From Tubulanus polymorphus (Eukaryota; Animalia; Nemertea): a stretch of 64,000 bases of DNA. The stretch is from the NCBI RefSeq assembly GCF_964204645.1, contig NC_134034.1, positions 8,816,962 to 8,880,961 on the forward strand, read 5' to 3'. Below the pieces are notes generated by a model. That model ran no database searches. It was not told the origin of the DNA and worked only from the letters and a program-made list of their open reading frames with translations. Made by a program: the position numbers and the translations under genes. Shown in pieces: positions 21,436 to 60,718 of the stretch (positions within the stretch are counted from its first letter, which is position 1; each line of letters begins with the position of its first letter).

Positions 21436-21439
21436 TTGA

Positions 21440-22215: not shown

Positions 22216-22808
22216 GTTTTGATCCGCAATTTCGTTAATAATCAGTTGATCTGTGAATATTATGCATCAATTCGTTCAGTTAGGATTTCGCATTCGGAAT
22301 TAAATTATGAATTAAAATTATTTGAGTTTTTATATACATGTATCAGCGATTGGTTACTCATCATACGGCTCGTGTAATGTTGGAAAACGCCTTTCGCAGC
22401 CCGTAACCTACGACGTTTTTTATGCTAATGAACAGTGATGAGGTCACTAACGTTCCGAGCGTCGGTGGAGCGGTCGTTTTTTAAGCATTACGCGAGTCTA
22501 TGCCGAGTAAACTATGGCTGATGAATGAAAACAAAAACAACTTTAGGAAAAATCATTTTAATTCTGAATGCAAATTCCTTACTGTTTAGCGATTGTCTCG
22601 TTGCTGGCTTACGTCGACAAGCGACGCGATGCCTACCGACGCAACTGGGTTTATCGCCGATAGTAGTGACAACTGAGCAGCCTATGATAGGCCGCCAGTT
22701 GCTGCTGTAGGCCTGTCTGTTTGAGATAAGCCGGCTTGCGACTGGGTGGATCCCATATTCCGCTAGTCGGGCTCCAGTTGCAGGGAATCGGAGCCAGTCG
22801 ACATACAT

Positions 22809-28430: not shown

Positions 28431-29796
28431 ATATATATATGAAAGGCTGAATCCAAGAACATGTCTATCGCACTTTTGAGCCCAAACGTCTACTTTTTCT
28501 TAGTAGCCACTTGAGAACAATAAGCAATTAACTATATCGGCTACTTTTCCAGTAGTATACATTTCAAAACAGTCACTCTGAAATAGTATTCCTTTCAATT
28601 CGGTTGGTTTTCTATAGTGGCTGTCTCGAAGAGACAGCCACTATAGAAAACCAACCGAATCAAAACCAAGTCAACTATTGAAAGGTGACCATCTTGAAAA
28701 GGCATGGTTATTTCCTGTTCAAAATAGCAGCATCTGCTAAAGATTTGCAGTGATACGTGATAGGTTCAAAGGTACTGTTAAACCCTATATGCTTTGTATA
28801 CAGAAATCTGTATGCTTTGAATACAGTTCTGTGAATAGAAAATCAAAGTTTTTGAGATGCTAAGAATCCCCTAAATTATATTACGCTCAACAAAATTGAA
28901 AACTATTGATTCATGTAACATCATCATGGGTTAAATCCATTTATACTAAAATATAGTGCCAGTAATAGAATTTTTTGAATTTTAAGATTTTTGTTTTACA
29001 TTTGCGATTATAAAACATTCTGGTGCGTTCAAAAATCTTTGATTTTGTAGAAAAGGAAGACAAAAAATAAATTTGTCTTTTAGGCTTAATTTGTTTTTAA
29101 AGGTATATGAGAGAGGAATATACAAATAAAATCATATTTTCAAAAAAATGAATTACGAAAAAAAAATGTATCTAAAATAATTAGAATTAACCTCGAATTT
29201 ATGGTTTATTTCGATACAAACGATTTTTAAGTAATCCATGTGATGTTCACTCTGTCACGCTGTTCTCTGCTTCTTCGTTAATGAATATTGAATCGTTTTA
29301 TCGCTCGCTAGAAATGATACCATAATCAAAATCTTATTTCGTAGTTATACAGTTTGGTTGAAATGAAATTACCAACTTAACTTATTGAAGTCAGTAATTT
29401 CATTTGATAGAGAAAACTTCTTTTGGCTTAAGATGTGAAAGAAATGCAATAGGCTGTAATTCTAGTTTCACATACTTTCCTACTTTGTTAAGTAAATTGT
29501 TTATATAGGTTATCAAAACCCAGCAGCAGCTCTGGTCAGCAGGTCAATTACACTGGCTAACGGACAGTGATTGATGAACGAATGAACAAACTGCACTGAC
29601 CACCAAAAGACCACAAACCAAAAGTAATTACCACTTAATATTAAGATTACTTATTATTAACTTAGCACCGCAATATCTCTACGAAACTTTATTTCAAGGT
29701 CACGATTGGTAGAACACTATATCCGTGTTGACGCGATGAGAAGAGAATCCCACAATGATAATAAAAAGTCCGAAAATGAAACTTCGAGATAGTAGT

Positions 29797-29843
29797 TTAT
29801 TTCAACGTTTCGACTATATCCTAATAGTCATCTTTAGGAATAA
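29797..29843 (-). ncRNA. Degenerate minimal hammerhead ribozyme of the Penelope-like 3' end
   Basis: CTAAAGA-T-GACTAT(TAGGAT)ATAGTC-GAAACGTT; one core mismatch to CUGANGA. Confidence 0.6.
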
Positions 29844-30223
29844 TGAGATACTACAGAAATTATGAGATATAAGTAATAGGGGTAATAGGCTTTCAAGCCA
29901 AAGGTCGAACGGGCGGGTGAGTAAAAAATAAAAAACATGAAAATAATTACAATTTCTACTTGAATTAGGAGTGAAATTCGCGAGTACCCCTATTACTCTT
30001 AAAATAATCATATACATGAATAACATTTAAATTGACAGATTATTCAATATAAAAGTGTAAGCTCTAATAGAATAGATATATAGATATATTTACAACATTA
30101 TTTTATTATTTATATTTGTATGAGTTAGATTTTTAAACATTAAAAGTGTTAGTAAAGTGTGATTGAAATAATACATGATATAAATCATTGAACTAAAATA
30201 AATTAAACAATAAAAGACCATAC

Positions 30224-33168
30224 ATGGAAGATGTGAGAAATTATATTAATTCATTAGATAATAAAAAAGATATAGAGATAACCGAAGCATTTAAAAGTGA
30301 TATTGGTCCAGCAGCTAACGAGTTTAAATTTCATAAAGGAAAAACATTAGAAGAAAATAAAAAACATTTAGAAAATATGAAAGAAATAATAAAAATAATT
30401 ACAGATGTTGAATATCCTAAAATAAGTATATCAGTTAAAGTAAAGTTTATAAAATCTGAAGATAAACCAATATATAATATAAATTCTCATTCACAACATA
30501 TTATATCTAAACAACATATAGATGATAAATTAGATAAATGTTATGAAGTAAAAACTAAAATAGAAGAGAAATATTTTGAAGGATCTGGTTTAATATTTGA
30601 TGAAATAATATTTATGACTTTACATGTTTATAACACAAAATATAATAAGTTAACTAAATCAAAACCAATTGATGAAAATAATGTATCATATTATAAAGAA
30701 CCAGATATTGAAGCATCGAGTTATATTAAACTACCATTTAAAACTAATGCTGTAATAAATGTACAAAATGAAGATGATAAATGTTTTCTATGGGCTATGA
30801 TAAGTTGTTTACACCCAGTTGAAGATTATAAACAACATAGTTTTAGATTAACTCATTATAAACAATTTGAAAATAATTATAAGATAGATAAGTATCCTGT
30901 TATAATTAAAAACATCCCAAAAATAGAAAGAGATAATAATATAAAGATAAATGTATTTGATTTAATCAAATTACCAAATACAAAAGGTAACAATATAAAA
31001 CATTATACATTAGAACCTTTATATCTATCAAAAGATTATGATTCAAACGATGTTATAGATATACTATATTATGAGAATCATTATATGTGGATTAAACAAA
31101 TAGATTTATTCTTTAGAACAGAAAGTGATCATCATAATAAAATATATCTATGTAGAAAATGTTTACATAGATTCAGTAATGAAAGTACATTATTGAATCA
31201 TAAACAATTATGTGAAAATCATGATTGTTGTAAATTAGTTTTACCAAATGAAAAAGATAAAATATTAGAATTCAAAAAATATGATTACAAAAATAAAGTA
31301 CCATTTGTAATATATGGAGATTTTGAATCATTAAATAAAGAACTAACTGATCAAGATAGAAAAGAAATATATTATAAGAGAAAGAAATTAAATTCTAATG
31401 AAAATGATTTTTCAGATGAACCACCAAAAACAAATACTATTAAAAAGATTCATCAATCAGCTGCAGCTTTCGGGTTATATATTAAATCTGATTATCCAGA
31501 ACTAATTGAAAGTGAATATTATGATTATAGAAATGAAAATGTTATCAATCATTTTTGTGACTTATTAATTGAATATGAAATAAGATTTAGTAAATTATTG
31601 AATACAAATATAGAAATTATAATGACAGAAGAAGATAAAGAAGAATTTGCGTTTGCAGATAAATGTTATTATTGTGAAAAGATATTATTATTAACCGATA
31701 TATTCGAAAGGTTTAGAGATGTAAACCTAAAATATTTCAATATTGATCCTTGTCATTGTTATTCTAGTCCAGGTTTAACATGGGATTGTGGATTAAAATT
31801 TACAGATATAAAAATGGATTTGTTAACAAATATAGATCAATTACTATTATTTGAAAAATCTATAAGAGGAGGTGTTTCAGGTGTATTAGGTGATAGATAT
31901 TTCAATGTAAATGATAACCCTGGATATAAGTTATTATATATAGATGCAAATAATTTGTATGGTTGGGCAATGATGGAACCACAACCTCATGGAGTATTTA
32001 AAATAAGTGAAGTTTTACAGAATGAAAATAATGATAAATTTGATTGGAAGAAAAGAATTCTTGATATTGCAGATGATTCAGATACTGGTTACTTTTTTGT
32101 TGTAGATTTAGAATATCCTGAACATATTAAATTTAAATCTAGAAATCTAGCTTACTGTCCCGAACATAAAACTGTAACTCATGAAGAATTATCAAATTAT
32201 CAAAAAAGAATTAAACCTGAAAATCATATTCATACAGAAAAGTTAATGGTAACTCAAGAAGATAAATATAATTATGTAGTACATTATAGAATGTTAAAGT
32301 TTTATCTAAAACAAGGAATGATCCTAAAAAAAGTACATAGATATATTTCATTTAGTCAATCTAAGTGGTTAGAAAAATATATAGATATTAACACCAAACA
32401 GAGAACTGAAGCTAAAACTGATTTCGAAATAAGACTTGTGAAAATATTAGAAATAGAAATGATATTGAGTTAGTAAGTAATGGTAAAAGAATTAGACATT
32501 TACAATCATATCCTAAGTTCATTGGTAACAGAATATTTGATGAAAATTTAGCTGCAGTTAAAATGAGAAGAACATCAATGAAATTTAATAAACCAATCTA
32601 TGTTGGTGCTTCAGTTTTAGAAATATCAAAGCTATTGATGTATGAATTCTATTATAATGTATTACGACCACTTTTTGGAGAAAAACATATAGAAATATTA
32701 TATTGTGATACCGACAGTTACATATTAAAGATAAAAACTGATAACATAACTGATGATTTAAAAACATTAAAACATCATTTTGATTTCAGTAATTATCCTA
32801 AAGATCATGAATTGTTTAGCAATGATAATAAAAAAGTTCCCGGTAAATTCAAAGATGAATTAGGTGGTGAAGAAATGATAGAGTTCATAGGTATTAGATC
32901 TAAAATGTATTCATATAAAACTAAAGAACATGAAGCTAAAAAGTTAAAAGGAATAACCAAAAGTGTAGTAGAAAAGAATATTCATTTCAAAGATTACATC
33001 AATTGTATATTCAATGAAGAAGTTAGGAAACATAAGATGAGATGTTTAAGATATGAAGATCGTGAAATGTTTATTGAAGAAATTGAAAAGATAAGTCTAT
33101 ACCCATTTGATGATAAAAGATATATTTTAGATGATGGAATTCATACAGTTGCTTATGGTTGTAATTGA
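30224..33168 (+). pseudogene. polB: Protein-primed family B DNA polymerase, inactivated
   Basis: EGSG, NEDDKCFLWA, IYGDFES (ExoI), SIRGG, YIDANNLYGWAM (A), KPIYVG, YCDTDS (C); ExoII region and motif B missing; frameshift near 32430. Confidence 0.95.
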
Positions 33169-33269
33169 GATGAATACTTAAAATTTAAAAGAGAAGAAAC
33201 AAAAGAGAACGAGATAATGAAAAGAATTCTAACGTGTTAATCAAATTTTAATAAAAATATGTATTATAA

Positions 33270-33619
33270 ATGGAGAGTAAACACACAGTGAGAACAACAA
33301 ATCATTTCTAGATAGAATAAAAGATACTTCAAATGTCAAATCAGTAGATTATAAATTTAAGAAGTTAAAAGAATTAATAATCCATAAGAAATATCTAATT
33401 ACAAATATTGATACAGTTACTAACAAATATGGAGATAAATTAGTTATACACTTAGAATATAAAGGATTAAAAGGAAATACATATAAATTCAGAACATATT
33501 TACCAGATAGATTTCATAGATTATCAAGTGATGATTTAGAAGAATTATGTTCTGGAGATTTCTATTTCGTATACAAAGGTAAGAATGAGAAAGGACATCA
33601 TGAAATAGATTTCGAATAA
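33270..33619 (+). pseudogene. Small Polinton protein (possibly OB-fold ssDNA-binding), frameshifted near the start
   Basis: FKKLKEL..KKYLIT..NKYGDKLVIHL..TYLPDRF; second copy at 21440-21706. The fold assignment is a guess. Confidence 0.55.
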
Positions 33620-38678: not shown

Positions 38679-39926
38679 ATGAGTGGGAGTTATATCAATC
38701 CTTCTAAGAATCATAGAATATCTAATGCTATTAAAGCAGAAAGATCACATCATATAATTACTCATAACCCTTCTAATATTAATCCTGATGAAACTTTATA
38801 TGTTAGAATTCCTCAATTAACACAAAATACTTTTTATGTTCCAAATAGTATTTATTTATCAGCCGATATAAAAGTAACCGGTAATAATAATAATTATGTT
38901 GTTGATAATGTTGGAAGATATTTGATTAAAAAATTAACTATAAAGATTGGTCCAGAAACAGTTTTCTCATTAGATGATTATAATTTATTTATGCATTATA
39001 AAGATTTATGGTTAACTAAAGAAAATAGAAATAATATGATATTACAAGGAATCCAATCAGAAAACCAAAATAAATTAAGATCTGAAGCCAATAATGCAGT
39101 AGTAACTAATGCTGTAGATAATTTGATAAAAAAGATTTATGGAAACAAATATAAAATTCCATTAGACTTTGAATTGATAAATAATAATGCACCTTTATAT
39201 AAATACGCAATTCAAGAAGACGTTATATTCGAAATAACATTTGCTCCTGGTAATGAAATTGTATTATCTAGCGTTGTTAAAGATATGAGTTATGAATTAT
39301 CGAATATATGTTTAGAATATGATACAGTAACTGATGAAAATATTTCAAGTATAATTCAAACTAAATACAATCAAGGATTTTCATAATTATATGATTATAT
39401 TGATAAATTCAAAACTGTAACTATTAATGCAAATGATGAAATAATCAATGAGAATATTAACTTCCCAAGAAGATCTATTAAAGGTATATTAATATTTTTT
39501 ACCATTGCAACATATACTAATGGCGCAATAAATGTTGATAATTATTATAATCCTGAAATAACAAAAGTAGAAATAACTATCGAAGGAATAGCAAATAAAA
39601 TATTTTGTCAAGGAATGAGAATGATTGATCAATGGCCAGAAATTAGAAAACATTTTATGAATGAAAAAGTAAAATCATCTGAAAATTGTAATATTAATCA
39701 AATTGATTATTATACCGGTAATAAATATGCATTATGGTTAGATTTTAGAACAACAGAGGATAATTCATTACATGGTTCTGGAAAAAAATTACAAAACACT
39801 AAAGATGGAATACAATTATTCATGACAAAGAAAAAAGGAAGCCTAAATTTTAAAATGCACATTTATATTATATCTGACGCGCAATTAAATATTGTAAATT
39901 CTCAATTAAATAGTGTTATGTATTAA
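38679..39926 (+). pseudogene. Major capsid protein (double jelly-roll type), one premature stop at 39384
   Basis: ORFs 38679-39386 and 39615-39926 share a frame (~415 codons); ITHNPS, LEYD, INENINFPRRSIKGIL, ALWLDFR..LHGSG..ISDAQLNI motifs. Confidence 0.8.
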
Positions 39927-39958: not shown

Positions 39959-40839
39959 ATGGAAGGAGGTAAAGTATATAAACATATTCCATACATCGAT
40001 ACGCATGAAAATAATGATGGTTTATATTATGTAATACCTTGTAATATAGCTTTGATATTTGATCCTATTTTCAAAATTTATAAAACTAAACTAATAGAAA
40101 TAGATAATAATAAAAGTGGTGTTGTTGATAATTTAAGTAATGTATACCTTCTACATCTAATAATGTAATACCTTCTACATCTAATAATGTAATACCTTCT
40201 ACATCTAATAATGTAATACCTTCTACATCTAATAATGTAATACCTTCTACATCTAATAATGTAATACCTTCTACATCTAATAATGTAATACCTTCTACAT
40301 CTAATAATGAAATAATATTAAATTTTAGTGAAAATAGAAATTATTGTGGATATTGTAAAAGTGAATTTTCAAACGCTACATCAAATTGGAATAAACATAT
40401 GAATACAAGGGTACATATAAATAATGTTATAAAACGTGTTGGTTTAAAAGAATTTATAGAACACCCATTTAGATATGTTACAAAGTTTGTTTCAAATCAA
40501 AAAGTAAATGGTGAAAAAATATATGAAGATTTATTATTAGCAACACCTAATAAAGATGAATTAGATCTAACCGATGCTAATGAAATATTAAAACCAAACA
40601 CTGTAAATGAAATATAAGGAGCAAACACTAATAAAGATAATAATGAAAATGGTGCCATACGGCACCCACATGGTGATATAGTTACAGATATTGATAATAA
40701 AGATTCTATGAAACATAAAGAAGAAACTATTGATGATGCGGTAGAAAGGATGAAAAAGTATAAAAATAAAACAACTATTGACGATGATACGGTAGAGAAT
40801 TTGAATAAATTTTTAGGGTCTGATAGTGAAAGTGATTAA
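39959..40839 (+). pseudogene. C2H2 zinc-finger protein with VIPSTSNN octapeptide repeats, disrupted
   Basis: 1-nt loss at ~40144; the repeat frame runs into YCGYCKSEFSNATSNWNKHMNTRVH; stop at 40615. Confidence 0.65.
40145..40309 (+). repeat. Perfect 24-bp minisatellite, ~7 copies
   Basis: TACCTTCTACATCTAATAATGTAA from 40145 with period 24. Confidence 0.95.
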
Positions 40840-41335: not shown

Positions 41336-41861
41336 CATCATGTAACTCAGTAGGTATAATTTAATTTTCTTCCAATGATTGCTGCATAGATTTTTTATCT
41401 TTGTTATAAAATAAAACTAGAAATCTTATATTCTCCCTAAAGTCTTTAACAATTGTATTATATTTTTGATTTAAAACCCATGTTGTTATCCCAAAATGTC
41501 TCCCAGAGAAAGCTAGATAACATAACTCACTTTCTCTAACTTTTGAATCATGTAAATGTGCGCAATCATCTACAATGAATAATGTATTTGATCCTTTATA
41601 AGTATCAATTGCTATTTTAATACAATTATCTAAATTTTCTTTTACTGTTTTAGGATCTAATATAATAAACTTTTTTATCTTAACTATATCTCTATTATAT
41701 GTTTCGTTCATTTCATAAGTAGGACAGAATAATATTATATTATCAAAATGATTCTTATAAATAGTTTCTAACAAATCTAATATGAAATGTGTTTTACCAC
41801 AATTGGTTACTCCAGTAACTAACATATTATGCGGTTCAAATATAAATAAATCTTTATTCAT
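41250..41861 (-). pseudogene. A32/FtsK-like packaging ATPase with premature stops near the C-terminus
   Basis: Walker A GVTNCGKT, Walker B FIVDD, GRH..TWVLNQKY. Confidence 0.9.
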
Positions 41862-42966
41862 TTATTCTTTTAATTTTACTAGATAAAATCCATTCATTAA
41901 ATTTATCATCATATCCTTTATATTTCACCAAAGAATACTTTTTTCCTTTAAGAGTTTTTGTTTTCAATACTTTTTCTATTTTGTATTCTATTTCATCTGG
42001 ATTTGGTACAAGTGATAATTCTTGTTCATAGAAATAACCTAATATTTCTTCATCTTTTAGATCTTCTAATTTATAAACAAAAGGTTTAGTTAATATTATC
42101 TTTTTAATTTTAAATATTTCTTCAGTAAAATTAGGGGTATAACCTTTATAAAAGGTTTTTCTATATTTAGATATTCTTACGTGTTGTCCAATTTTGAATC
42201 TAGGTTCACCGAAATCATGTGTAACAAACGCGCCATATAAATTATTCCATACTATTTCTGAATTATCTTCTTTTCTAGCTTGTATAGGTTTCATATTTAT
42301 AGAAGTATGTTTAGAATTATTATAACCTTTCACTAAATCATCTAATACATCGATATATTTACATGTTTCATTAGCAGTAAAATATTTCCACATTCTAGTT
42401 TTCAATGTTTTATTAAATCTTTCTATAATAGATGCTTTTTTATCTGAGTGTGTTGAAAAATATTCTACATCGTTATCAGATAATAGTTTTTTAAAATGTT
42501 TGTTATAAAATTCCTTACCTTCATCAAATTGTATCTTATCTGGAATAGCTTCTTTAAATATTGATTTAAAAGCATTTGTCACTTCTATACCAGTTTTATT
42601 TTTGATTGGAATTGACCATGCGTATCTACTGAATATGTCTATAACATTTAATATCCAGAAATATCCTTTGTTGTATTCCTCTAAGTTCTTCATGTCAATT
42701 AAATCTGCTTGCCATTGTTGATCAATATGTGAAACCATAACTTTTCTTGTTATATAAGTTTTATCCATTTTCTTGTGGATTTGATATGTTGGTTGATTTT
42801 GTAACCATGATTTTAACTCACTATATTTTATATCACCATGTGGGTGCCATACGGCACCATTTTCATTATCAGATTTAATTTTATCCCATAATTCTGAAAC
42901 GCTAGAATATGATACTTCACTTTCTGGATTGTAATATAAATCTCTTAAATATTGTTCTTTTTTCAT
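41854..42966 (-). CDS. Retroviral-like (rve) integrase with C-terminal chromodomain
   Basis: WQADLIDM, IQFDEGKEF, IERFNKTLK (DDE); YKIEKVL...VKYKGYDDKFNEWI. Confidence 0.95.
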   Translation of the reverse strand: MKKEQYLRDLYYNPESEVSYSSVSELWDKIKSDNENGAVWHPHGDIKYSELKSWLQNQPTYQIHKKMDKTYITRKVMVSHIDQQWQADLIDMKNLEEYNKGYFWILNVIDIFSRYAWSIPIKNKTGIEVTNAFKSIFKEAIPDKIQFDEGKEFYNKHFKKLLSDNDVEYFSTHSDKKASIIERFNKTLKTRMWKYFTANETCKYIDVLDDLVKGYNNSKHTSINMKPIQARKEDNSEIVWNNLYGAFVTHDFGEPRFKIGQHVRISKYRKTFYKGYTPNFTEEIFKIKKIILTKPFVYKLEDLKDEEILGYFYEQELSLVPNPDEIEYKIEKVLKTKTLKGKKYSLVKYKGYDDKFNEWILSSKIKRINE

Positions 42967-44405: not shown

Positions 44406-46123
44406 TTTAATCTAAAAGATGTCGTGAAAATGGATTACTGTACTTAAATATGTTTAAAGGTTTCCCTACTTCATAATATATGTACTTACATTTAGATTTA
44501 GAACTGTAAACTGTGTTTTGAGAGAGAATATCCAATACGTACTATGTATGTGAAAGTTGATTTCTAACTGCCGACGTGGCGCACGTTCGACCAAACTAAT
44601 TACTTCTGCATGTTTGCCTGGATTGTAACAGATGTTCCTTTGTGATCTAATTGATTAATCCTTTTCAACTGAAATAGCACATTCGACCAATATTCAAATG
44701 AGGTGCGCCCCATTCAACTGAATATGAAATACGGCACAGATGTTTTTGTAAACAACCTAATACAATTACATATAGGCGGTTTGACATAGATCGAGAGTAA
44801 CCGGTTTTCTAAGCGTTTAAGCTTCAACGTATTTTTCATTATGTGTTGAGTTCCATAATTCAACAAATGTCTTTGCTTTATCCAATTGATCTAAATATAA
44901 CTGTAAATCTAGTTTGTTAGATTTAATTATGTTTTCCTTCTTTTCTAAAGGTCTTAGATTCTTCCAATTCCAAATAAGTTTTTTATTGTATTAATCATTC
45001 ATGTCAAATTTAGAAATCGGCAACACGTGATCAATATGAAAGTATTCACGATAATTATCTATATTCATTTTATCATCGAATTGATATATTATCCATGATT
45101 TGAGAAATTCATCTGAACAACCCAACAAATTAGATAATGTTTCTGAATGTGTTTCTTTGTTGAATAATTGTGTTAATCTAGATCTTAAGCATTGTTTCAA
45201 TCTAAAATTAAGATCTGTTTGATATCTTTCTCTCATATATTCTGTCATATAATCATTGTAAGCTTCTCTATTATCTTCTCGATATTGTTTGGTATATAGT
45301 TTAGTACAAGTTTTACAGCAATATTGAAAACCATCTTTGCTAATCTTACGCTTATTAAATTCTGTTATAGCTTGTGGGGCTTAGAACCTTCTTAGCTAAG
45401 AAATAAACTAAAAATCCACGGTATTTAGTTCAAGGTCGTCATATGCGTTTACTACAGCGGAAACGATTAACTACAAAATACAAAAAAGGGAATATAAGGA
45501 CACTTAGTATTTAAGATATTAAAACAAAAGATAAAAATGAAGTAAGTGAAACCTACCGACAGTGAAGCCACGGCGACAAAAATAATAAAACTATGCGCCC
45601 AAAGCGCCCGAAAGACAATCGCCGCGAACACGCCAAAAAATATCTCCACCGACCTTGGGGAGACGGACCGCAGGCCGGACCAGCGTAAACTAAAACGAGC
45701 AGCCGGCTCGGGGCATACATATCACCGACCCCCGAAATTGCCCAACCAATTTCTCACAATTAACTATCATAATAAAATGAACTTATCTTATGCCTAGCTT
45801 CACTGAAGGCAAGATCACGATACCATCAAAAGATACACTATTCTTATCTATCATCAAATACTTCAAAAAATTTAACTAAACTAGAAAATTACAACTTCTT
45901 AATAACAAAATTAAGACGTTTAAGCCACTTGAAATGTCAAGAGCATGATACACTCAACACCAATACATGCTATAGTCCCCTTTTACATTAAATACAAAAG
46001 TAAAATGCAAAAATCAAATTCTGACTCAAGCATAATACAAAAACAAGATCAGTAAATTTATCAATTAAATTACTTAAATGACAGATTAAACTCGAGAAAT
46101 ATAAGTATTACAAGTTTTTAGCA

Positions 46124-47400
46124 TTACTCGGCTTCTAATAATAAAACCAACTTGTGAATCGGACGTACAAGTTCGTTATTGAATGTTTTAACCTTTACAG
46201 ATCTGACAAGCCCTATGGAGTCAGGATAGGTTTCAATGACTCTTCCCATGGCCCAACTATGTCTTGAGCCACTATCGGCCAATAAAACTACATCATTAAT
46301 CTGGACATTACGTTTAGGTGACTGCCATTTCTGGCGCTCCTGTAAAAGAGGAAAGTACTCAGCTAACCACCTGCGCCAGAACTGGTCGGTTAGATACTGG
46401 ACACTACGCCAGCGTTTATGCACATACAAATCATTTTTTACAAATAGACCTGGAACATCACAACTAATACCTCTACCTAGTAAAAGGTGATTGGGAGTTA
46501 GTGGAGGATTATCAGTCACGTCACCTGACTGTCTCGTAAGAGGCCTTTTGTTCAAAATACATTCAACTTCACACATAAGAGTAACCAGAGATTCATCAGT
46601 TAAACGACCCGGGTGCTCTTTGAGCAGCCCATATAAAACTTTCCTAACATCTCGTATAAGCCTTTCCCAGATCCCCCCAAAATGTGAACCTGTAGGTGGG
46701 TTAAACTCCCACTTTACTCCTAATTTCTCTAATACATAACTGATTTTATCCGAATCAAGCTTTTTCAATGACAATTCTAATTCTGACTTAGTACCTACTA
46801 AATTTGTACCATTATCTGAACGAAGGGAGCGTACCGGCCCCCGTCTAGCTATAAACCGTCGGTACGCATCTATACACGAGTATGTCTCTAAGGAATGAGC
46901 AATTTCTAAATGTACGGCACGCGAAGTCATACAGGTAAAGATTACGCCATAACGTTTTACTTCGGATCTTTTGTGCTTAATTACGAATGGTCCGAAATAG
47001 TCAACACCTGTACATGAGAATGGTGGTTCTCGGATAGCTAGTCTTTCTGACGGTAGATCGGCCATTTTTTGTTGACAAAGTCTACCCTGGTATTTTCGGC
47101 ACGGAACACACTTTCCAAGGATAGATTTCACAAGACCTGGTCCACCCTGAATCCAGTAATTCTCACGCAGTTTGCTTTAAACAGCTTGTTTTCCCAGGTG
47201 GCCCATATCGGCATGGGTTTCACGTATCAACAGTCTCGATAAATGTGACAATTTCGGCAAGATAATAGGATGACGAGCTTCAAACGGAACACTTGCTCGA
47301 CTAGTACGTCCGCCTACACGCAGAATACCCAATTCGTCTATAAATGTGTCGAATTTATGCAGCGGACTACACCGTTTTACACGCTTCTTTTCATCCTTCT
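46124..47400 (-). pseudogene. BEL/Pao integrase
   Basis: LRVGGR, HPIILP, VDYFGP, RAVHLE, SDNGTNL, GGIWER; one stop near 47177. Confidence 0.92.
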
Positions 47401-47700
47401 TTAAAGGATTTGTGACACCTAAATTATTTCTGCGGTTTTAGTTAGTATGAATAAAATTATTACCGACAATATTTACGAAAATTAGAAGCAATGAACGTTT
47501 ATATGGTTTTGAGAGCGATTTTGATGGAAAATCTCGCACAACAGTTGAAGCGCGCATCTTCGGGCATTTCCGTCAAACATCGGTGATGATGACGTATAAC
47601 CGAGAAGACGAACGCGGAAGTGGCTCATTGTACAACGAAGGATTGACTAGCGCGGACGATATATTATTCGATTATTCTGTTTTTTCTAAGTTTTTCGATC

Positions 47701-50610
47701 ATGCCTCGTCGTTGTGTTTACTACAATTGTAGTTCAAGTAATCGCTCTTTGTTCTGGTGGCCACGGGATACGGTTATTGCGCGTAAATGGACCGCATTTG
47801 TGAGCAGAAAGAGAGCACAATGGAAGCCCTCATCCACGAGTGTATTGTGTGGGAGGCACTTCACCAACGATTCATTTACGAACTATTCAATGTTTACTTC
47901 AGGATTCGCGACTAAGTAAGTCTTTTAACATTCAATATTTAAAATAGAAGCAGTATTGCTATCTCATTCTTTTCATCAGGTCAGGTTAAAAAGTGTTTCA
48001 GTACACGGAAACTGGGTCAGGTCCTTTCTTTGTTCATTGCTTCGTTTAGACATGTTTTCTGACTAACTGGTCTAGTAACTGCCTTCCCGACTCATTAATT
48101 GATGTATCATGGCTGGTTTTACAAGCTGCTCATATTGATTGCCTGAGGACTAAATGGACCTCCTGACTCGATGTTAGGTCTACACTTAAAACCTTGAAGC
48201 CTAATCTAGTATGCAAGTATAACTATCATATTTTGAATTCCATTTAGATTACATTTGAAGCCAGATGCCATCCCTACCATTCACATAAATGACGACGATG
48301 ATAACAGTCAATCAGATACCACTAAAAGACCAACGTACGCAAAACGAAAAAGAAAAGAGTTGGTGGAAACTTTAGTAGCTGATACAGTATCTAACGAAGA
48401 GTTACAGCCTTCTACATCAACCGCTGAAACGTCATACAGTCCGACAGCTGATACATCAACCAGTCCAACATCATCACCAGATAGGCCTCCCAAGTTTGTC
48501 GAAAAATCGTCACAGAAAGATATTGAAGCAGAAACCAAAGGTAAATTTCACTATATCATAAAAAATTCATGCTACAATAATTTTCTGGCATTCCATTTAT
48601 ATTTTCAACCTGATTTTTAGAAATTATGTTGTGAAAAAGTCTGTAGGTTATCTGAGAATAATTGGCGTATTGTTAATCGATGTTTTATTTGTGTCATTAA
48701 AGGTAATCAAACGCTTGCATGGAGACCGAAATGTAATCGACGACACTATCCGAGTCAGGGTAAATTAACAAGGAAGAAAACAACTGGCACACAAATGACC
48801 CCTAAAATGTTTAAGCCTTCGTATGATAGCACCGATACCGACGTATCCAGCGATGACGAATACTTCGACGATGATTCCGATTATGATCCAGGTGAAGATC
48901 CTAATGGATCATCTTCAACTGAATTTGACGATGAATAGTCCTTTATAATAATATTAGTTCTTACTTATAAGAATATAATCTTATTATTCATTTAGTCAAA
49001 TGAGGTAACGTCATCAAACGCTATGGAAATAGAAGGTCTGAAACGTGCTGCAGAACGATTGAAGACATACGAAATCACAGCTTTCATTAGCGATATGCAC
49101 CCTTCAGTGCATAAGTGGGCTCGAGACACCTGGAAAGTATCTCATTACTTTGATACCTGGCATTGTGTGAAGGGTAAGTCAATTATCAAATCAGAATCCT
49201 GTTATAACATCCCGCTCTACTTTGAATCAATATCAATTTCACTTGGTGTTAACTCATTCTGGTATGAGAGCAACAGACATTTATTTTCTGTGTAATATTA
49301 TGTTTTGCAGCAGTGATTAAGAAACTCGAGAAACTCAGTAAAAAGAAAGGTCTCGAAGATATCCAAGCTTGGATACAAAGTATCCGAGTTCACCTGTATT
49401 GGTGCGCTATGTCGTCGAAACCTGGGGACCATGAGGATATAAAACGAAAGTGGGAAACCTGTTTGGAACATATTTCAAACAATCATGAAAACTGTATGCA
49501 TGGAGATTATGAAAAGAAAAAAAAAATGGATATTACCAGGTATCTATGATAACCAAAAGTCTTCATAAGCTATTGACTTGATACATGGGTGATTAGTTGC
49601 ATTTTACATGTACATATTATATTTCGTCATTTTTCTAGATACATATGCCGCAAGTGAGCTCGAGAAAGTAATGAAAAACACCAGAACAGTGAATCAAATC
49701 GGAAATATGTCATCGTATGGTCAGACGAGCTCTGTAGAAGCATTTCATAATGTGTTAAACCACTTTGCACCTAAGATGATTCACTTTTCATATATTGGAA
49801 TGCTTAGCAGGTTAGTAAAAAGTAGCTGTGAATAGCTTCAACTTGTTAAAACACTCAACATTCGTCTAATAAATTAGTGTCTTTCTTTAATTTTTTTAAT
49901 TTCCATAAACCTAAAGTGCGTGGGACATGAACCTGAGACTTATAAATCCTTCGTGGCTTTGTTTTGGTTCCAACTCGCTAGTGTTGCCATCTTTTGGTTT
50001 TTATTTTAACTTACTACATCTGTATGATTTCAAACCAGGCGATATGGAATAAATAAAATATTCAGATAATATTGTCACATAAAATATGAAAAATGATTTC
50101 ATTTTTAGGATGTGCACAGCAATCTTGCATTACAACGAAAATAGCGGCAGACTTCAAGCTAAAACTAAAGATGGGAATGAGCGTTTCACTGTATTTTATC
50201 CAAAACACAAAGATGGTCACACGCTTCGTAGAATATTGACCAAAGCAACATATGGTAGGTCACAATTGGATGCATATTAGAACCCTTTGATCATCGATAG
50301 TTTATAAACATATCATTGAAGCCTGTCTATAATTGAAAGCGGATCCTCATTTGCTTCATCAAATATCTTTTTAGGTTATGTCGATGAATGCGTTGTTGCA
50401 GCAATAAAGATTGCAAACAAGGAAGTCGAAGTGAGTGATTACTGTACTCCTCCACCTCATTTGAGTTCTCAAAAAGTGAAAGTAACCAAGGAAGAAGCCA
50501 TAAACCAGCATTTGTCTCGCTTCAAGAAAGTTACAGAAATCGTGCAATCGAAGCCTCAATCCTCAGGACCAACACAGCAACAGAAGAGAAAAAGATCAAA
50601 TAAACTGTAA
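47701..50610 (+). pseudogene. Spliced THAP-domain Kolobok DDE transposase with the central part missing
   Basis: THAP (C..C..WP..W..LCGRHF..DAIPTI); SNAMEIEG, SDMH, FDTWH, HLYW, TSSVEAFH, HFAPK, LHYNEN exons with GT-AG introns; stop at 48937 and frameshift at ~49520. Confidence 0.85.
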
Positions 50611-50705
50611 TCAAGATAACGATTAATGAAAAACTAATTCCTGAAATAATTTGTCCGTTTTATTTAATAAAGATACTTATATTATTATTTACACACATAA
50701 TTCAC

Positions 50706-51806
50706 TTAGTCGTCCAGTTTTGGCAGCCTGAATCCTTTATAAATGGCGAATTCTTCATCACCGTCTTTCGGAAAGTGTGCCCGGATGCACGAAACAACAC
50801 AAGATGGCAAAGTAACCCTTATCTTAGGTCCACAGAATCCCCAGCACCAACGAACAAACTGGCGATACGCAATATGTCTGTATTTATCATTGGTCTGGCC
50901 TTCAAATGCTCTTCTGCCGTATTGGTTTCTATAACCACTCCAGGCTGTTTGAAGAACCCAGACATGTAGGCACACCCCCTTAAATCCATCGGTGTCAGTG
51001 ATGCAGTTGTATTCCCTGGAATCGTATCCTTCGAGTTCTCGAATTTTCCCGGCAACAACATCTATCTCACTGCAACACACACATTCCGGTTCTGTTGTTA
51101 GAATTTGACAATGGGTACATGTACACCTGTGAAAATAAATTAAAACATTCCATCAAGACATGAAAGGTGGATCTAATTATTTCTCGTCTGGGTCTAACTG
51201 CAGTTTGGGTCACCTTTCCACTGTGTGACGCTAGTTGTTAACGTAAGGTTAGGTACATAACCATTAGGGACACCTAAACTGCAGTCACTCCCTGGTCTGG
51301 AATGAGATATCGGGTAGGCTTTCTAGCAGTCTCTGATTGCCGTTTTAGATGGCTTAGTTAGTTTATACTGAATTCCTTAGATACCGGCTGTACAAAAAAA
51401 AACTACAAAAGACTATAGAAAGCCTTCTGTTTTACTATTGGTTGACGGATGAATTTAATAACCGAATCCACCATTATCCTTAGATTGTGTCGCCCCATAC
51501 TTTGTTAACAACAATAGAAATCCCTTACCATTCATTGAACCGATGAACATCTAATCTAGAGATTCTATCCGGTCTATTGTCCGGTCTAGCGCCGTCTTCG
51601 TCATCGTCTGATGCATCAGGCTCGTACAAATACGGCGGCTCTGCAGCATTAAAAACGTCCATATCGGGCCCCATTTCGCCCACCTCAATTTCAGATGATA
51701 GTGCACTTTCATCTGAGAATTCTCTTTCGCTTATATTTTCGCTCACTTCGCTAGATGAGGATGAATAGTCGGAGGAATAATCACTGCATTCTCTATTGTC
51801 GGCCAT
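50706..51806 (-). CDS. kolX: KolX (P2X7 C-terminal ballast-like Cys-rich protein); exons 51806-51529 and 51126-50706, 232 aa
   Basis: Spliced WCTCTHC...ECVCC..E; YRHIAYRQFVRW...RVTLPSCVV..IR..FP; intact frame. Confidence 0.88.
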
Positions 51807-52041
51807 TTTGTTTCTGTTTGTTGTTCTCGGTTATACGTCATTCGATGACGTCATTGCCAACGCACGTGGCAATGTAGTCAAATGTAAACAAATCATCGGA
51901 ATTTCTATTAAAAGTCGTATTTAGACCAGTTAGCTAAACCGTAGAAATGTTTTATTGATATCAGTCCAATCTACGATGATTCATCTACCAAATTAATCAT
52001 TAAGAATGCAAAACCTGACTTATGTGTCACAAATCCTTTAA

Positions 52042-55000
52042 GGATTCGAATTCGTCGCTATAGTATTTTCTTTGTTGACATCGGATTAGAACTTCCGTAG
52101 CTATTTCTAGCGATTTGACTGATGGTCTTTTGACCTTAAGTTTGATCAAGGCCGCTTTAACGATCTGCCTAGGTTGACCATCTATTCTACGTCGCATTTC
52201 TGCCTTAGATTTCAAATATGATTTCACGGAAATAAACCAACCAACCGCGCGCCTGAGTCGATGCCAATTAGAATAATGATTTATCACTCTATCTAGACCT
52301 GATTCTTCCGTAACACTGGTGACACCGCAATGTTTCACCTCTGAGTCGCACTCAGTGCCGATAATTTCACAGTCTATAGGCCAATTTTCTTCGGATTCGT
52401 AGAGAAACGATGGGCCATTAAACCATCTATTCTCTCGTTGTTCATCTATAATAGTAAACCCACGTGAGGCATCATCTGCCGGATTGAGTTCAGTATTTAC
52501 GTAGCGCCAATTACTTATATCGGAACCCTCTCGTATCGCTGACACTCGATTTGCAACAAACGTACGATATCTCGCGGTTTCATTTCTCAGATACCCTAAA
52601 ACTACTTTACTATCAGTCCAGTAAATCAAATCATCCACTTTAATATCTAACTCTCTGATGATCGCTAGACTCAGCTTAACTGCAGTAAGGGCGGCGGTCA
52701 ATTCGAGACGTGGGATCGTAGTGACCTTAAGCGGAGCCACGCGAGACTTTCCGAGCACAAGCATACACGATACATTTCCCTGTGAGTCTGTGGTCCGCAT
52801 GTAAGTGGCGACACCATAACCCGATTCGCTTCGCATCAGCAAAACAGTGTTACTGACACTGTTCCACCTCTCCAAAGTTACACGGATTGTAACAACGACG
52901 TATTCTTAATTTATTTACACGCTGAATACTCTGTAGCCTCGTAGCCCAGATTTCACGCTCTGATTGTAGTAGTTCGTCATCCCAGCCAGCATCTCTGCGA
53001 CACAATTCCTGTAGAAGAATTTTAGCAGGCAGTATGTATGGTGCCAGAAAGCCAATTGGATCATATATACCGCTCACATAAGATAGAATAGAAAGTCTCG
53101 TAGGAATAGTATCTGAAGTCTCGATATCGAATTTGAATACATCAGACTCAGCGCACCATAATATGCCCAGCGTACGTTCAGCTGGGAGACTAAAGTCGTT
53201 AGAGTTCATATCAGCTACATTTTTTGACAACTTTGCTTCGTCTATTGATGAAAGAACGCAACGACTATTGCTTAACCGTCCTGTTAAGCAAAATCCTCCG
53301 CAATTACATAGATTACTTACGCCCGCAACGAGGTCTAGGGCTTCGCTTTCAGTTTTAACTGATTTAATGAAATCGTCGACATAAAAGTTTCTTAAAACAC
53401 ACTGGCGGACTGATTCTGCAAAGTCGGTATTGTCATAAACCGTCTGGTGGAGTGCATAGTTAGCACACGATGGAGATGATTTTGCTCCGAACGGATGAAC
53501 AGTCAAACGATAAATCACCGGGTCGGTTTTCATGTCTCCGTCTTTCCACCATAGGAATCTAAGCAGATTGCGATCTTCAGGTGGTACGTGTATTTGGTAA
53601 AACATCTTAGTTATATCCGCCTTTATGGCTATTGCATTTTCCCGAAATTTAAGTAGTACGCCTAATAATGAATTCGTAAAGTCAGGTCCTTGTAAAAGAC
53701 AATCGTTCAATGAAACTCCGAAAAACTTGGAGGAACCATCGAAAACGACCCGTACTTTTCCTTGTTTTGCTGCATGCAACACCGCGTGGTGCGGCAAGTA
53801 CCATGTTTTTCCGGAAACAGCGACATCGTACAATGGTACTGGCTCAGCATGCCCCAGTTCAAGCATAGTGTCGATAACAAGTTTATAACTATCGTATAGT
53901 TTCGCATCGCTAACTAACTTCCTCCTGAGACTATTCAATCTGCGCTCCGCGTAACAACGATTATCAGGTAAACAGACGTTTTCCGACACAACAGGCAACC
54001 CAATACTATAGTGGCCATCACGCAAATTTATCGATTTATCGACTTGCTTGAGGAAACGCTTATCTAATTGCGACAGTTCTTGTTTCTCAGTACCAAAATG
54101 ATCCGGAAAGTCCAAGGCCATCGCGCCACGAACTAGATTTTCTAGGTTTTGGTCGTGAACTTCTGTAATGGCTATACTAGCGGTAAAGAAGGAGCTCGCC
54201 TCCTTAGGGCACAGGTTCCAAACGACCCAGCCTAGAGCGGTCTTACAGGCATGCGGAGAACCAGGAGGTCCCGTACGCATCTCTACTGGCGTATATGCCT
54301 CTGCGATATTATTACCGATTAGAATTCCGATTTGTTTACAAGGTAATTCAGCGACACTAACATCGTGAAGATGCGGCCATTTTCGAACATCTTCAAGGTT
54401 CGGTACATACCTTGACGATACGGGAATGTCAGCCTTTGAATAGGCTCGCGGAATTAAAACAGATTCGCCGGTCCAATAATTGTGAACAGATATATTATTT
54501 AATGCGTATGATTCGATTACATTGACACTATCGATTGTCTGTACCGACAATGTACTTTTCTTTCCCGAACAATTCAATTGTTCACGAATCTGATCACTAA
54601 CAAACGTGATGGTACTTCCAGGATCGAAGAACGCATATGTCGTGACGGATTTTGTACCATTTTTAGTACTCAAGCGCACTGGAATGATTGCTAACGAGCA
54701 GCTACTTTGGACTCCTGTATGCCCCGTGAGTCCTGTTTCGCTAGGGCCGGTAACTGACGAATTTATACGATCACGAAAATGTAGCACGGTGGGGTGGCTC
54801 TTACCACATTTCTCACATACCATTAAATTTCTACAAAACTTCTTACGATGACCGGTCCTTAAGCATCCAAAGCATAGTGAGTGACGTTTCAATAGTTCCG
54901 TTTTACTTTCATCGGTGTCTTTTTCGAAAGACTGACAATTTAGAAGATTATGCGATTCGTCTTTACAGAAAATGCATGGTCTGCTAATACTATTTGCTGA

Positions 55001-56274
55001 TTCGCTCGGATTCGATTCGACCTTGTTAAAACGGAATTTATCGTCGGCGGTTCTACGTTTTTCACTATAATTAGCCTTGTGTGCACTAATAGTGAAGCTT
55101 CCAGACGGACGAGGACTTGGTTTTTTATACGGAGCCGGTTTTACGCTATCAATCAGCGATGTGCTTTTACCGTAAATTGGATCATTAAGCTTTCTAGACT
55201 CACGACTGACGAATTTAACAAAAGCTTCAAATGTAACCGATTCTTTGTTATCTCGAATTCGAATGACCTGGTTACGCCAACGATCATGTAGGTAGTACGG
55301 TAACTTCAACATAAGCCCTTTAATGTTCGAAGAATATTCTAAGACGCGAACGCCATCTATGTGCTTGACCGCATACAAACACTCGGTGAGAAAGATCGAA
55401 AATTTATCTAACTCCTTCGGTCGATCAGGTTTAATCAATGGCCAGCTGAGTGCCTTGGCTATGAAAGCGTTTGCGATTACCTCTGTATCTCCATACCTAA
55501 CTTCAAATTCTAACCCAGCTTGATACCCGGTAGCTGGCTCTAAATAGCTGAATCCGCTTACTATATCGTGTGCTTCGCCAGAGGTAAACTGCTCCAAAAA
55601 GTTCATTTTCTCTGCTGCATCCGAAGTGTAACGTACAATGTGGCTGTCTAACTGACGCAGAAATTTTCTAAACTTTAGTGGGTCGCCACTAAATTTCTGC
55701 ACCGTTGTGTGTGGTTAACGCAATTCTTGAACAATCGCAAGCGTGCCGTTAGGATCGGATGCTGGTCTATCGGGTGTATTACTCCTCGCTTCAGATACCG
55801 ATGAGTCAGTTTGCTTCAGACTAACGTTTTCTACAGCGTTGTTTGACACGAAATCAATAGGTGTATCATATTTTTCCAATATATTAGATCGCGCTTCAGT
55901 CTTTTTCATTTTAGTTAACAATTCTAGTCGTCAAACCGTCTTCTCGCTATATTAAGTTTCATTTCTAACGCTTTAAAATCTGCTGCTAATTCAGCTTTAC
56001 GTTGTTCTTCTCGAATACGCATAGAACGGACAGAGGATGTTGTTTGACCAGATGCAACTGACTCATTTTCGGATTGGCCGTCATTGTTAACGGGAATGGT
56101 TTCTTTTATTACGTGACTAGATTCTGCGACCCATTCTTGAACCCTTTTTCTAACTGTGATTTCATCATCTGAGTTTGAGCAGTCTCCAGGCAGTGAAACA
56201 CCTGCCGTTCCGAGTGCTGGCATAACACGGCCAACTGGAGTCCTATATGCGACTAATGAATGACTCTTCTTCAT
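52042..56274 (-). pseudogene. BEL/Pao gag-protease-RT-RNase H polyprotein with a few stops and frameshifts
   Basis: Cys/His knuckles, FDPGS protease, WYLPHH, KVRVVFD, FYVDD, IPRLEL, NPADDASRG. Confidence 0.95.
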
Positions 56275-56957
56275 TTTACTAATACTACGGCGTGTCGTTA
56301 ATGATGTGGGGCTTAGAACCTTCTTAGCTAAGAATAAACTAAAAATCCACGGTATTTAGTTCAAGGTCGTCATATGCGTTTATTACAGCGGAAACGATTA
56401 ACTACAAAATACAAAAAAGGGAATATAAGGACACTTAGTATTTAAGATATTAAAGCAAAAGATAAAAAATGAAGTGAAACCTACCGACAGTGAAGCCACA
56501 GCGACAAAAATAATAAAACTATGCGCCCAAAGCGCCCGAAAGACAATCCCCGCGAACACGCCAAAAAATATCTCCACCGACCTTGGGGAGACGGACCGCA
56601 GGCCGGACCAGCGTAAACTAAAACGAGCAGCCGGCTGGGGGCATACATTACATAGCTAATTTATCTAATGTATTTATGACGCCAGTGTTATTTGTAATAT
56701 TGATAGTTTGTGGTTGTTCTGATTCCATTTATTATACATATTTTTTTACTAAATTGATTTTAGAAGTTCAATGATTTATATCATGTATTATTTCAATCAT
56801 ACTTTACTAACACTTTTAATGTTTAAAAAACTCATACAAATATAAATATTGAAATAATGTTGTAAATATATCTATATATCTATTCTATAAGAGCTTACAC
56901 TTTCATATTGAATAATCTGTCAATTTAAATGTTATTCATATATATGATTATTTTAAG

Positions 56958-57224
56958 AGTAATAGGGGTAATAGGCTTTCAGGATAAAGGTTGAACGGGC
57001 GGGTGAGTAAAAAATGGAAAACATGAAAATAATAACAATTTCTACTTGAATTAGGAGTGAAACTCATAAAAATGAAAAATAAATTCGAGCGTGTGAGAAT
57101 TTATTTTTCATTTTTATAAGTTTCGCGAGTAATTCAAGTAGAAATTGTTATTATTTTCATGTTTTTCATTTTTACGAGCTCGACCGTTCGACCTTTGTCT
57201 TGAAAGCCTATTACCCCTATTACT
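56958..57224. repeat. ~267-nt imperfect terminal palindrome of the Polinton right end
   Basis: AGTAATAGGGGTAATAGGCTTTC...AAATAAATTC-GAGCGTGTGA-GAATTTATTT...GAAAGCCTATTACCCCTATTACT. Confidence 0.9.
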
Positions 57225-57479
57225 GATATATATACAATCCAGAGACAAAGAGACTAATTCAAGTAATCAGAGATGATACAAACTAAAGGAAAATTAACGT
57301 AGAAACAGTTACACGCTAAAATAGATTAAAGGGAAGCAAACTAAGGGGTAATTATAAACAACAATAGTGAGTATAAATATAAATGAAACTTGAAGTCAGT
57401 AGTAAAAAGAAAGACAAACTAGGGGGCACTTAAATTAAAACGAAGGTGAATACAAGTTAAGTCAGAGACGAAATTGATG

Positions 57480-58998: not shown

Positions 58999-59465
58999 TT
59001 AGGTGCCAATATAATAACATGCCAAAATGTACGGTGTTCGAACTTCGCTGAATCGATGAACCAATGAATCGCTGAATTATAAGATAATTATCAGTTTTCT
59101 CCAACTAAACTCTTTTTCTCAAATTATCGTAAACCAACGTTACCAATACTTGAATTTGGAAGTGAATGCGGGCTAGAACCAACAAAGGTACCGGTTTAAG
59201 GTGCAGATATACAGGGAATCCCTCTCATAGCGACCAACACAGTTGTATATCCCTTCTTTGCCGATTAGTAAATAATTTTTGATCTAAAGGACTACAGGAC
59301 CCGAAGAAGTCGAAAATACTCTAAAGCGTGTTAACTGTAGCTAAATCAAGAACTTCCACAATAGAATTTTGTATCATGAAATTTATTATAGTTAAACTAT
59401 AACGTTTCGGCTGTTGACTGACAGCCATCTGACTAAAAGCCCTTATCACTAGGAATGTCTCCATT

Positions 59466-59510
59466 CCACCTGATGATGGATGTTAGTCAACAGTCGAAAC
59501 GTCGCGGTTT
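59466..59510 (+). ncRNA. Minimal hammerhead ribozyme-like motif inside an inverted repeat (59348-59560)
   Basis: CTGATGA-stem-GAAACGTC at 59470-59503; partial inverted copy at 59401-59429. Confidence 0.6.
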
Positions 59511-60718
59511 CAAATTTAACAAATTTTATATTATTCAAAATTCTATTACAGGATTTCTTCATTCATGACCCCAGGGACGATCAGCAAAGGCTGTTACCAT
59601 AATCCAAACGAAATCTTGAATACCATACAAAGTTTCTTCTATTAAAATTCGATCAAATATGGGCACAATTTAGATGATTTCTTTAGAATGTTAAAAATCC
59701 ACATGGATATAGCATATTTTGTTTAGAAAAATCAATGATTTCCCGAAATTAGAATCCAGGGAAATTCGAACACTCCGAAATGCACATCTTAATTTAAGAT
59801 GCGAAGACATCCAGGCCCCCGTTGAAAATAAACCACCATTTCAATAATGAGAGGTTAGCCTAAATCTATGATTGCGCTTTTAATCTAAGAATTTAAATAA
59901 AAAATAAATGCAGACCTATGCTTGAAAATAGCTGCATTTGTTCAAATTGAATTCTTTATTCAGTAGAGTTTTCCATATGTTTATATTGTCACGTATCACT
60001 GCTAATTTGAAGCATATGTTGCTATAGTGTATTTATAACAGGGAATCTGGCAAGCGATCTCAAAATGGTCACTTTTCAATAGTTGACTTTAAGAAACGAT
60101 GTGTTTTGAGAGTAGCTGCTATGGTAGGAGTTACTATCACAAAGTCACTGTTAACAGGCGGGTGGTTTTACAGTCACTTCTACTGCTAGTGTGCGCTATC
60201 GAAACCAGATGTTTCAAAATGGTCACTTTTCAATAGTAGACTCTTTGAAACAGCCACTAAAGAAAACCAACCGAATTGAAAGGAATACTATTTCAGAGTG
60301 ACTGTTTTGAAATGTATACTACTGGAAAAGTAGCCGATATCGTTAATTGCTTATTGTTCTCAAGTGGCTACTAAGTAAAAGTAGACGTTTGGGCTCAAAA
60401 GTGCGATAGACATGTTCTTGGATTCAGCCTTTCATATATATACCCCTGGTGGTAGTCTGAAACACTACAACAAAAAATAATTCGCGCAATAAAACCTTGA
60501 TTTTCGCTTACCAAGCATTATAATTGTATAACATAAAAAATAGTGAAGTTATCAAACACAACAAAAACAAATTCAATATCTTTAGAACAAACAACTGTAG
60601 GCCTACTCATGTATAACAATAACTGCGTATAAACTCACGTAGAACCAATAAATGCATATAAAGTCATGTAAAATTGCAATATCTAGTTTTTCTTTTAGTT
60701 GGTTGGTAGCCGGTTCAT

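Follow-up and report, generated by a model that had tools for sequence, protein, structure and literature searches.

In the window (the whole 64,000-nt stretch of DNA analysed here), 29872–57224 is one insertion of a Polinton, which sequence inspection showed to be bracketed by GATATA on either side (Table 1). The empty site was found in raw reads, in which the left flank was joined to position 57225 (726 reads, agreement 0.97); the target site is itself a high-copy repeat that is empty in hundreds of reads (57225–57420 and 29760–29871). These reads belong to one DNA read set with the same species label (run X7), 12% of which was used. After subtraction of a nested BEL/Pao retrotransposon, the Polinton measures about 16.1 kb and has the characteristics of the Polinton/Maverick group, including pPolB, an rve integrase, TIRs with AG...CT ends and a 6-bp target-site duplication, and a packaging ATPase together with a capsid gene. 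The capsid gene, which is collinear in the relatives L001, L002, L004 and L010, is interrupted by a stop at 39384–39386. Because the capsid gene is split in this way and the polymerase matches that of the relative P0121 in pieces, we call this copy a decayed Polinton. No Pfam match to a maturation protease or a minor capsid protein was found among the scanned ORFs.

The inner TIRs are properly inverted, as the initial annotation had stated, and align with 203 matches, 11 mismatches and 7 gap columns. An 11-nt end motif occurs in the window only at 29872 and 56958 and its reverse complement only at 29987 and 57214, in agreement with the earlier proposal that both edges of each terminal palindrome bear the element end. 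An AT-rich stretch before the small ORF (33239–33274) resembles the inner edge of the TIR (56724–56759; 83% over 36 nt), and this resemblance suggests a shared promoter-like element. One Polinton ORF contains a 24-nt tandem array of about 7 copies (40120–40338). The LTRs of the BEL/Pao element are about 97% alike, and its insertion interrupts an ORF that begins just inside the right TIR and is homologous to a 256-aa ORF of metagenome locus L003.

Other repeats lie around the Polinton. A pair of ~200-bp inverted repeats (28432–28650 and 60227–60442), 31.6 kb apart, brackets it and represents another mobile element, with a 35-bp near-perfect hairpin inside the pair (28562–28699). Three further inverted-repeat elements, at 5205–7581, 25515–26659 and 22278–22583, have arms of 234, 129 and about 27 nt, respectively, and are probably non-autonomous DNA transposons. 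Short remnants of another pPolB-like gene occur outside the Polinton at 14049–14120 and 15240–15326, as do 73-nt repeats that contain palindromes and a loose palindrome of 220 nt (13082–13378 and 59344–59563).

Table 1. Coordinates of the Polinton, its terminal structures and related sequences in the window.
Feature	Position	Strand	Basis or remark
Fragment of related element (short inner TIR and homolog of the 33281 ORF)	21385–21765	-	88% DNA identity to 33239–33579
Third hairpin end, 153 nt, related subfamily	21766–21918	+	Oriented like right end
Left target-site duplication, GATATA	29866–29871	+	Sequence; empty-site reads
Left terminal hairpin remnant, 126 nt	29872–29997	+	105 nt of arm, 8-nt other-arm remnant, last 13 nt
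Left inner TIR	29998–30215	+	Inner side truncated, abutting truncated polymerase gene
Broken pPolB gene	30197–33237	+	Matches P0121 residues 116–628, 835–1090 and 1092–1365
Small ORF	33281–33619	+	Homolog adjoins third hairpin
Probable major capsid protein gene	38679–39926	+	Pfam Capsid_N, E 0.0013, below cut-off
Packaging ATPase, A32-type	41361–41861	-	Pfam Pox_A32, E 2.7e-12
rve integrase and chromodomain	41854–42966	-	Pfam rve, E 9.4e-10; Chromo, E 8.8e-5
Nested BEL/Pao LTR retrotransposon, outside Polinton proper	45373–56652	-	5-bp duplication TAGCT
Right inner TIR	56741–56957	-	Repeat comparison
Right terminal hairpin, 267 nt	56958–57224	+	ssDNA folding
Right hairpin, arm A	56958–57086		
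Right hairpin, loop	57087–57096		
Right hairpin, arm B	57097–57224		
Right target-site duplication, GATATA	57225–57230	+	Sequence

Polymerase domains and related loci

The pPolB copy is 70–84% identical, in pieces, to a whole 1241-aa ORF of locus L003; it lacks the start region and the segment bearing endonuclease VII, and its frame changes near 32416–32449. Motifs of the TP-like and vOTU-like domains are present, and Pfam gave no polymerase match for the scanned ORFs or for L003. A structure model covering residues 1–680 of the L003 protein (70 sequences, mean pLDDT 82.5) predicts an N-terminal domain made up of a beta-sheet and two helices, in which a Ser-Gly loop follows helix 2 and precedes the last strand. 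The best matches of the model in the PDB were Y-family polymerases, spanning about 112 columns, and an isolated little-finger chain was among them. The best E was 1.6e-3, and no match to a TP-like fold fell under E 0.001. A little-finger match was previously reported for Polinton TP domains in the available text of PMC11161782. The window copy keeps a Ser-Gly loop corresponding to that of L003 and, in addition, Cys and His motifs, which we take to be the vOTU site; the DxxCF motif is found in 114 of 120 homologs. Among viral structures, the polymerase model matched adintovirus, bidnavirus-type and adenovirus polymerases (best E 4.4e-23). With moderate strength, the modeling indicates that the polymerase retains TP-like and vOTU-like domains and would fit orientation-preserving protein priming.

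An endonuclease VII domain was detected in L003 just under the Pfam cut-off (E 1.5e-4). Of 120 homologs, 86 have its motif, as do 14 of the 27 viral loci; it is deleted from the window copy. One of these viral loci, L082, has the motif and a defined TIR end with no long terminal hairpin, so endonuclease VII does not imply hairpin ends. The literature, as far as the text available to us goes, interprets nucleases within pPolB as insertions of the homing type. Three of the 27 viral loci found with the polymerase alignment have TIRs (L082, L092 and L103), none with a long terminal hairpin; L092 and L103 stop at the edge of their contigs, so that a hairpin there could have gone missing. The hairpin had no match in 80 metagenome loci, none of which reached a terminus, and integrase and 19-nt end-motif searches had no match in the viral contigs. 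A distant relative, L096, carries a 184-nt branched hairpin between its integrase and polymerase genes (4657–4840). Pfam detected no Rep/HUH protein in the 16 scanned ORFs.

Terminal hairpins of the element and its family

The initial annotation had described the right end as a ~267-nt palindrome with purine-rich bubbles. Single-stranded DNA folding bore out the palindrome as an imperfect hairpin: the + strand folds at −106.8 kcal/mol (z −27.98), with none of 200 shuffles equally stable, compared to −94.7 kcal/mol for the − strand. The + strand has 14 stem mismatches (seven G-T, five G-A, one G-G and one A-C) plus one bulge. Both quoted bubbles are present, and the description can be made more specific, since each is a tandem GA/AG step (57005-6/57176-7 and 57055-6/57127-8), with a third possible at the loop base according to our reading of the sequence. 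The bubbles hold a tandem 5'-GA/5'-GA step where the opposite strand would have TC/CT, and tandem GA steps stack strongly in the sheared form (PMC8163305, available text). The three steps may be copies of one another and hence not independent. Among transition-type mismatches on the + strand, G-T accounts for seven of eight (one-sided p 0.035, counted after seeing the data). The A-C site at 57118 and the G-T site at 57017 are private to this copy, with 97% and 91% of reads differing, and their removal leaves G-T at six of six (p 0.016). Strand-biased mutation could be an alternative source of this bias. At the right end, the G-T and tandem G-A mismatches sit on the strand that reaches the terminus with its 3' end.

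The initial annotation was right that the window holds hairpin termini at both ends of the element and overlooked a third, shorter one at 21766–21918, next to a fragment in which the homolog of the 33281 ORF directly adjoins the TIR. Like the right end, it has a GA/AG step at the loop base and a T-G pair at position 34 on the host-facing strand. Its two strands fold about equally (+ strand −48.9, − strand −51.9), without energy asymmetry, and its other mismatches are mixed (two G-T, two A-C and four of other types). A rescan of the window found no further hairpin end of this type.

To judge from the raw reads, such hairpins are a property of the family. We mapped 8,493 reads to 56880–57224 and 12,671 to 56650–57420. 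Depth was about 1,810 where arm A begins, about 3,010 towards the end of arm B and about 2,110 at the edge of the TIR. The last value is about half of the two arm depths taken together, which implies about two arms per TIR and a hairpin at essentially every end. Beyond 57224, 1,569 reads exit the hairpin into unlike flanks (agreement 0.34), indicating that many insertions terminate at that base. The letter specific to this copy at 56904 occurred in 2 of 641 reads, which means that a single copy is covered by about two reads or else is missing from the sequenced individual; with single-copy depth near two or less, family ends would number, as a rough estimate, from hundreds to about a thousand. 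Hairpin lengths vary, with joints that skip 57–109 nt, some of which put the tip at a bubble. Partner positions covary in reads (56968/57214, 56973/57209, 56996/57186 and 57025/57158), the pair 56984/57198 is mostly T-G, and the read variation listed beside the GA steps (57090, 57094, 57129 and 57175) spares the steps themselves. A separate opposite-strand joint, 57067–57077, was seen in 60 reads with 39 starts; it makes a perfect palindrome without a loop instead of a flipped end, and may reflect either real copies or fold-back in the library.

Orientation of the ends

The unusual feature that the initial annotation had seen at the left end, namely that it reads the same strand as the right end, holds up: the two ends align with a score of 190 on the same strand and 148 as reverse complement, and at the left end both purine sides of the bubbles lie on the + strand. 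It had been described as lacking only its center. We found two deletions, of the hairpin tip and of most of the inner arm, on a side of the element where the polymerase start is missing as well. Letters at hairpin positions 24, 27 and 34 are of the true-TIR type and those at 41, 44, 46–48, 51, 96–98 and 100 of the other-arm type, with position 59, of true-TIR type, being uninformative since the right end is private there. Arm type therefore switches between positions 35 and 40 (29907–29912), possibly as the product of a crossover or template switch between the arms. Because a terminal flip should invert the whole palindrome and this switch is internal, the left end is not a clean flipped isomer and is likely a one-off partial inversion with deletions, that is, a damaged and rearranged end. 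Palindromes trouble assemblers, and the left end is known from the assembly alone; nevertheless, an assembly error is extremely improbable as its explanation, considering the matching 6-bp duplication, the empty-site reads and the presence, at positions 26 and 76, of letters that the right end lacks but many reads carry (rows 57198 and 57034). The differences at positions 26 and 76 also show that the left end was not copied from reads of the right end.

We used three read-outs to bound the frequency of flipped ends in the family. Both arms are in the reference, and arm-B letters on arm A are consequently visible only in reads anchored by the inner TIR. Based on letters, none of the markers at 56982, 56985, 56992, 56999 and 57004–57006 had a variant among the best 40 of 67 rows, the lowest of which had a share of 19.4%, and the remaining 27 rows (10% to about 19% share) contain letter classes compatible with a flipped minority of 10–19%. 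Depth at the arm markers was 1,180, compared to 1,422 expected from TIR-anchored reads alone; if all missing TIR-anchored reads were clipped flipped ends, the bound would be about a third. Based on loose ends, fewer than 370 reads (sixth row listed of 176) end before 56958 compared to 1,569 behind 57224, for a bound of 19%. Based on joints, six TIR-anchored short-hairpin joints from 56967–56981 (37, 19, 24, 19, 27 and 13 reads; 139 in all) begin within 24 nt of the TIR edge and rejoin the same strand near the loop, and no opposite-strand twin of them was found among the best 15 of 75 joints, the smallest with 12 reads. In the table of between-letters, four TIR-anchored rows among the best 12 of 77 carry arm-A-type letters.

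Three other signals were considered as evidence of orientation and rejected. A 1-nt gap at 57009 (118 reads) belongs to a contig that departs from arm A in just 3 other places, the 380 loose ends found behind 56995 fit a paired-stem subfamily equally well and the difference in depth between the arms is affected by biased read placement. Overall, the flipped form accounts for about 19–35% or less, with bounds that are uncalibrated for aligner clipping, and one orientation dominates. The reads leave room for a minority of flipped ends, up to about a fifth to a third.

Replication of the ends and comparison with known systems

Our preferred reading, which we give about an even chance of being correct, is that the family carries hairpins, mostly in one orientation, that fold on a 3' single-stranded end during protein-primed copying, and that the odd left end arose as a one-off partial inversion with deletions. 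On a displaced or excised strand, the 3' end would snap back, with its terminal 24 bases pairing flush against the end motif's inner copy. Such folding could at the same time shield the end and restore a duplex origin locally, with no need for the two distant TIRs to pair. If the terminal protein then primed at the last base, the palindrome would be copied as is and its orientation kept. Long hairpins may have grown by nesting, with old GA-closed tips surviving as bubbles, and cruciform or template-switch accidents would delete tips and, on occasion, cause inversions like that seen at the left end.

The initial annotation had raised flip/flop isomers as a possible state of these ends, and its model amounts to a symmetric exchange in the style of poxviruses or AAV, in which either end would show the two isomers at equal frequency. 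This is suggested by the left end, whose purine bubble sides both lie on the strand opposite to the true-TIR prediction, and by the terminal palindrome itself, as genomes of this kind typically have imperfect hairpins whose mismatches are preserved (PMC8956199, available text). However, the three read-outs bound the flipped form at about 19–35% and not 50%, the third end is unflipped and the left end, with its two deletions, switches arm type inside the stem and not at the terminus. Two of the three ends in the window share one orientation, the remaining one is a deleted mosaic and one orientation dominates in the reads, so that what the initial annotation had named as refuting its proposal (other copies in one orientation, or a one-off inversion) has largely been observed; an imperfect terminal palindrome is present, and neither equal isomers nor inversion of a whole palindrome was found. 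We regard symmetric flip/flop as very unlikely, and flip/flop ends that would tie Polintons to poxvirus-type replication are not supported. The main rival to our reading is an asymmetric process: synthesis could be primed by the free 3'-OH of the 3' hairpin itself, and asymmetric resolution of the resulting hairpin-closed duplex would make one orientation predominate. The bubbles would tell a resolving nuclease, for which the endonuclease VII domain is a candidate, which arm to cut, and flipped or part-flipped ends would be by-products. Flush pairing of the 3' end with the inner end motif, the weak endonuclease VII match in L003 and its frequent motif among homologs, and a flipped minority compatible with the reads all point in this direction, as do bubbled parvovirus termini that in some cases occur in one form only (PMC8242256, available text) and the hairpin-priming model proposed for protist virophages and PLVs (bioRxiv 10.64898/2026.07.28.741278, available text). 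We nonetheless consider self-priming doubtful, although possible, given that the TP-like and vOTU-like domains look intact and a protein primer would be available, that L082 combines the endonuclease motif and a TIR end with no long hairpin, that pPolB nucleases may be homing-type insertions and that Pfam found no Rep/HUH protein in the scanned ORFs.

A hybrid of protein-primed and rolling-hairpin replication is somewhat more doubtful still. Here, the GA-stabilized 3' hairpin would prime itself and sheared G-A steps would mark the arm for endonuclease VII, with one orientation dominating and both the flipped minority and fully fold-back derivatives arising as by-products. The hairpins might also have no role, being fold-back relics whose arms stay paired through copying or repair between them, and strand-biased mutation would then account for the G-T excess. 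Widely varying lengths and frequently deleted tips (57–109 nt skipped) would be expected of relics, as would the lack of asymmetry in the third hairpin and the TIRs without a long terminal hairpin in the distant relatives L082, L092 and L103. But ends across the family have about two arms each, mismatches should be erased by copying between arms, yet the GA/AG steps persist in subfamilies with diverged stems, and deamination does not make tandem G-A steps, making this explanation improbable. Returning to folding during protein-primed copying, the broader suggestion of a lineage with hairpin termini stands insofar as long imperfect hairpins with conserved mismatches occur across the family; protein priming is not displaced, as the TP domain is kept.

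How Polintons leave the chromosome, replicate and present their ends to the integrase is not established by experiment in the literature covered, and removal of the terminal protein before integration is called unclear in the available text of PMC11161782. An end structure that is family-wide and stable on one strand only would constitute evidence, at the level of sequence, for a single-stranded intermediate and would tell which end folds.

In its gene content (pPolB, rve integrase, packaging ATPase and probable capsid), TIRs, AGT...ACT ends, 6-bp duplication and size of about 16 kb, the element resembles Polintons/Mavericks, including adintoviruses, as presented in the available text of PMC8097293, PMC8502044 and bioRxiv 10.1101/2023.08.22.554363. 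It differs from them in that the outer 150–270 nt of the TIR form a strand-asymmetric hairpin; the main text of these three sources, as available, contains neither 'hairpin' nor 'palindrom'. We found no literature report of terminal palindromes in pPolB Polintons, with prior mention possible in repeat databases or supplements, and bioRxiv 10.1101/2022.05.25.493380 was set aside as a precedent because it concerns protein beta-hairpins.

Parvovirus terminal hairpins, as described in the available text of PMC8242256, are similarly imperfect, bubbled and 120–270 nt long, and some ends occur in one form only, whereas the present element has no detected Rep/NS1, is integrated by rve and encodes its own polymerase. 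The flip-and-flop telomeres of poxviruses likewise have conserved hairpin mismatches, which in poxvirus are needed for packaging, but their ends are covalently closed and exist as two complementary isomers, in contrast to an open duplex end with one dominant orientation here (PMC8956199, available text). Inverted repeats of PLVs have been linked to entomopoxvirus termini (PMC11296320, available text). The one report of terminal palindromes in this group that we found, from 2026, concerns endogenous virophages and PLVs of Halocafeteria seosinensis, which have palindromes within TIRs beside the target-site duplication and for which a hairpin-priming model was put forward (bioRxiv 10.64898/2026.07.28.741278). 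Those palindromes measure 52 nt in the subtype shown and occur mainly in non-pPolB elements, unlike the 150–270 nt found here next to a pPolB with a TP-like domain. The section text of that report does not use the word 'flip' and contains no analysis of orientation or mismatches, on which its supplements may bear. With the present element, terminal palindromes known from protist virophages and PLVs are found in a Polinton that carries a polymerase as well, where we infer their role from the structure of the ends.
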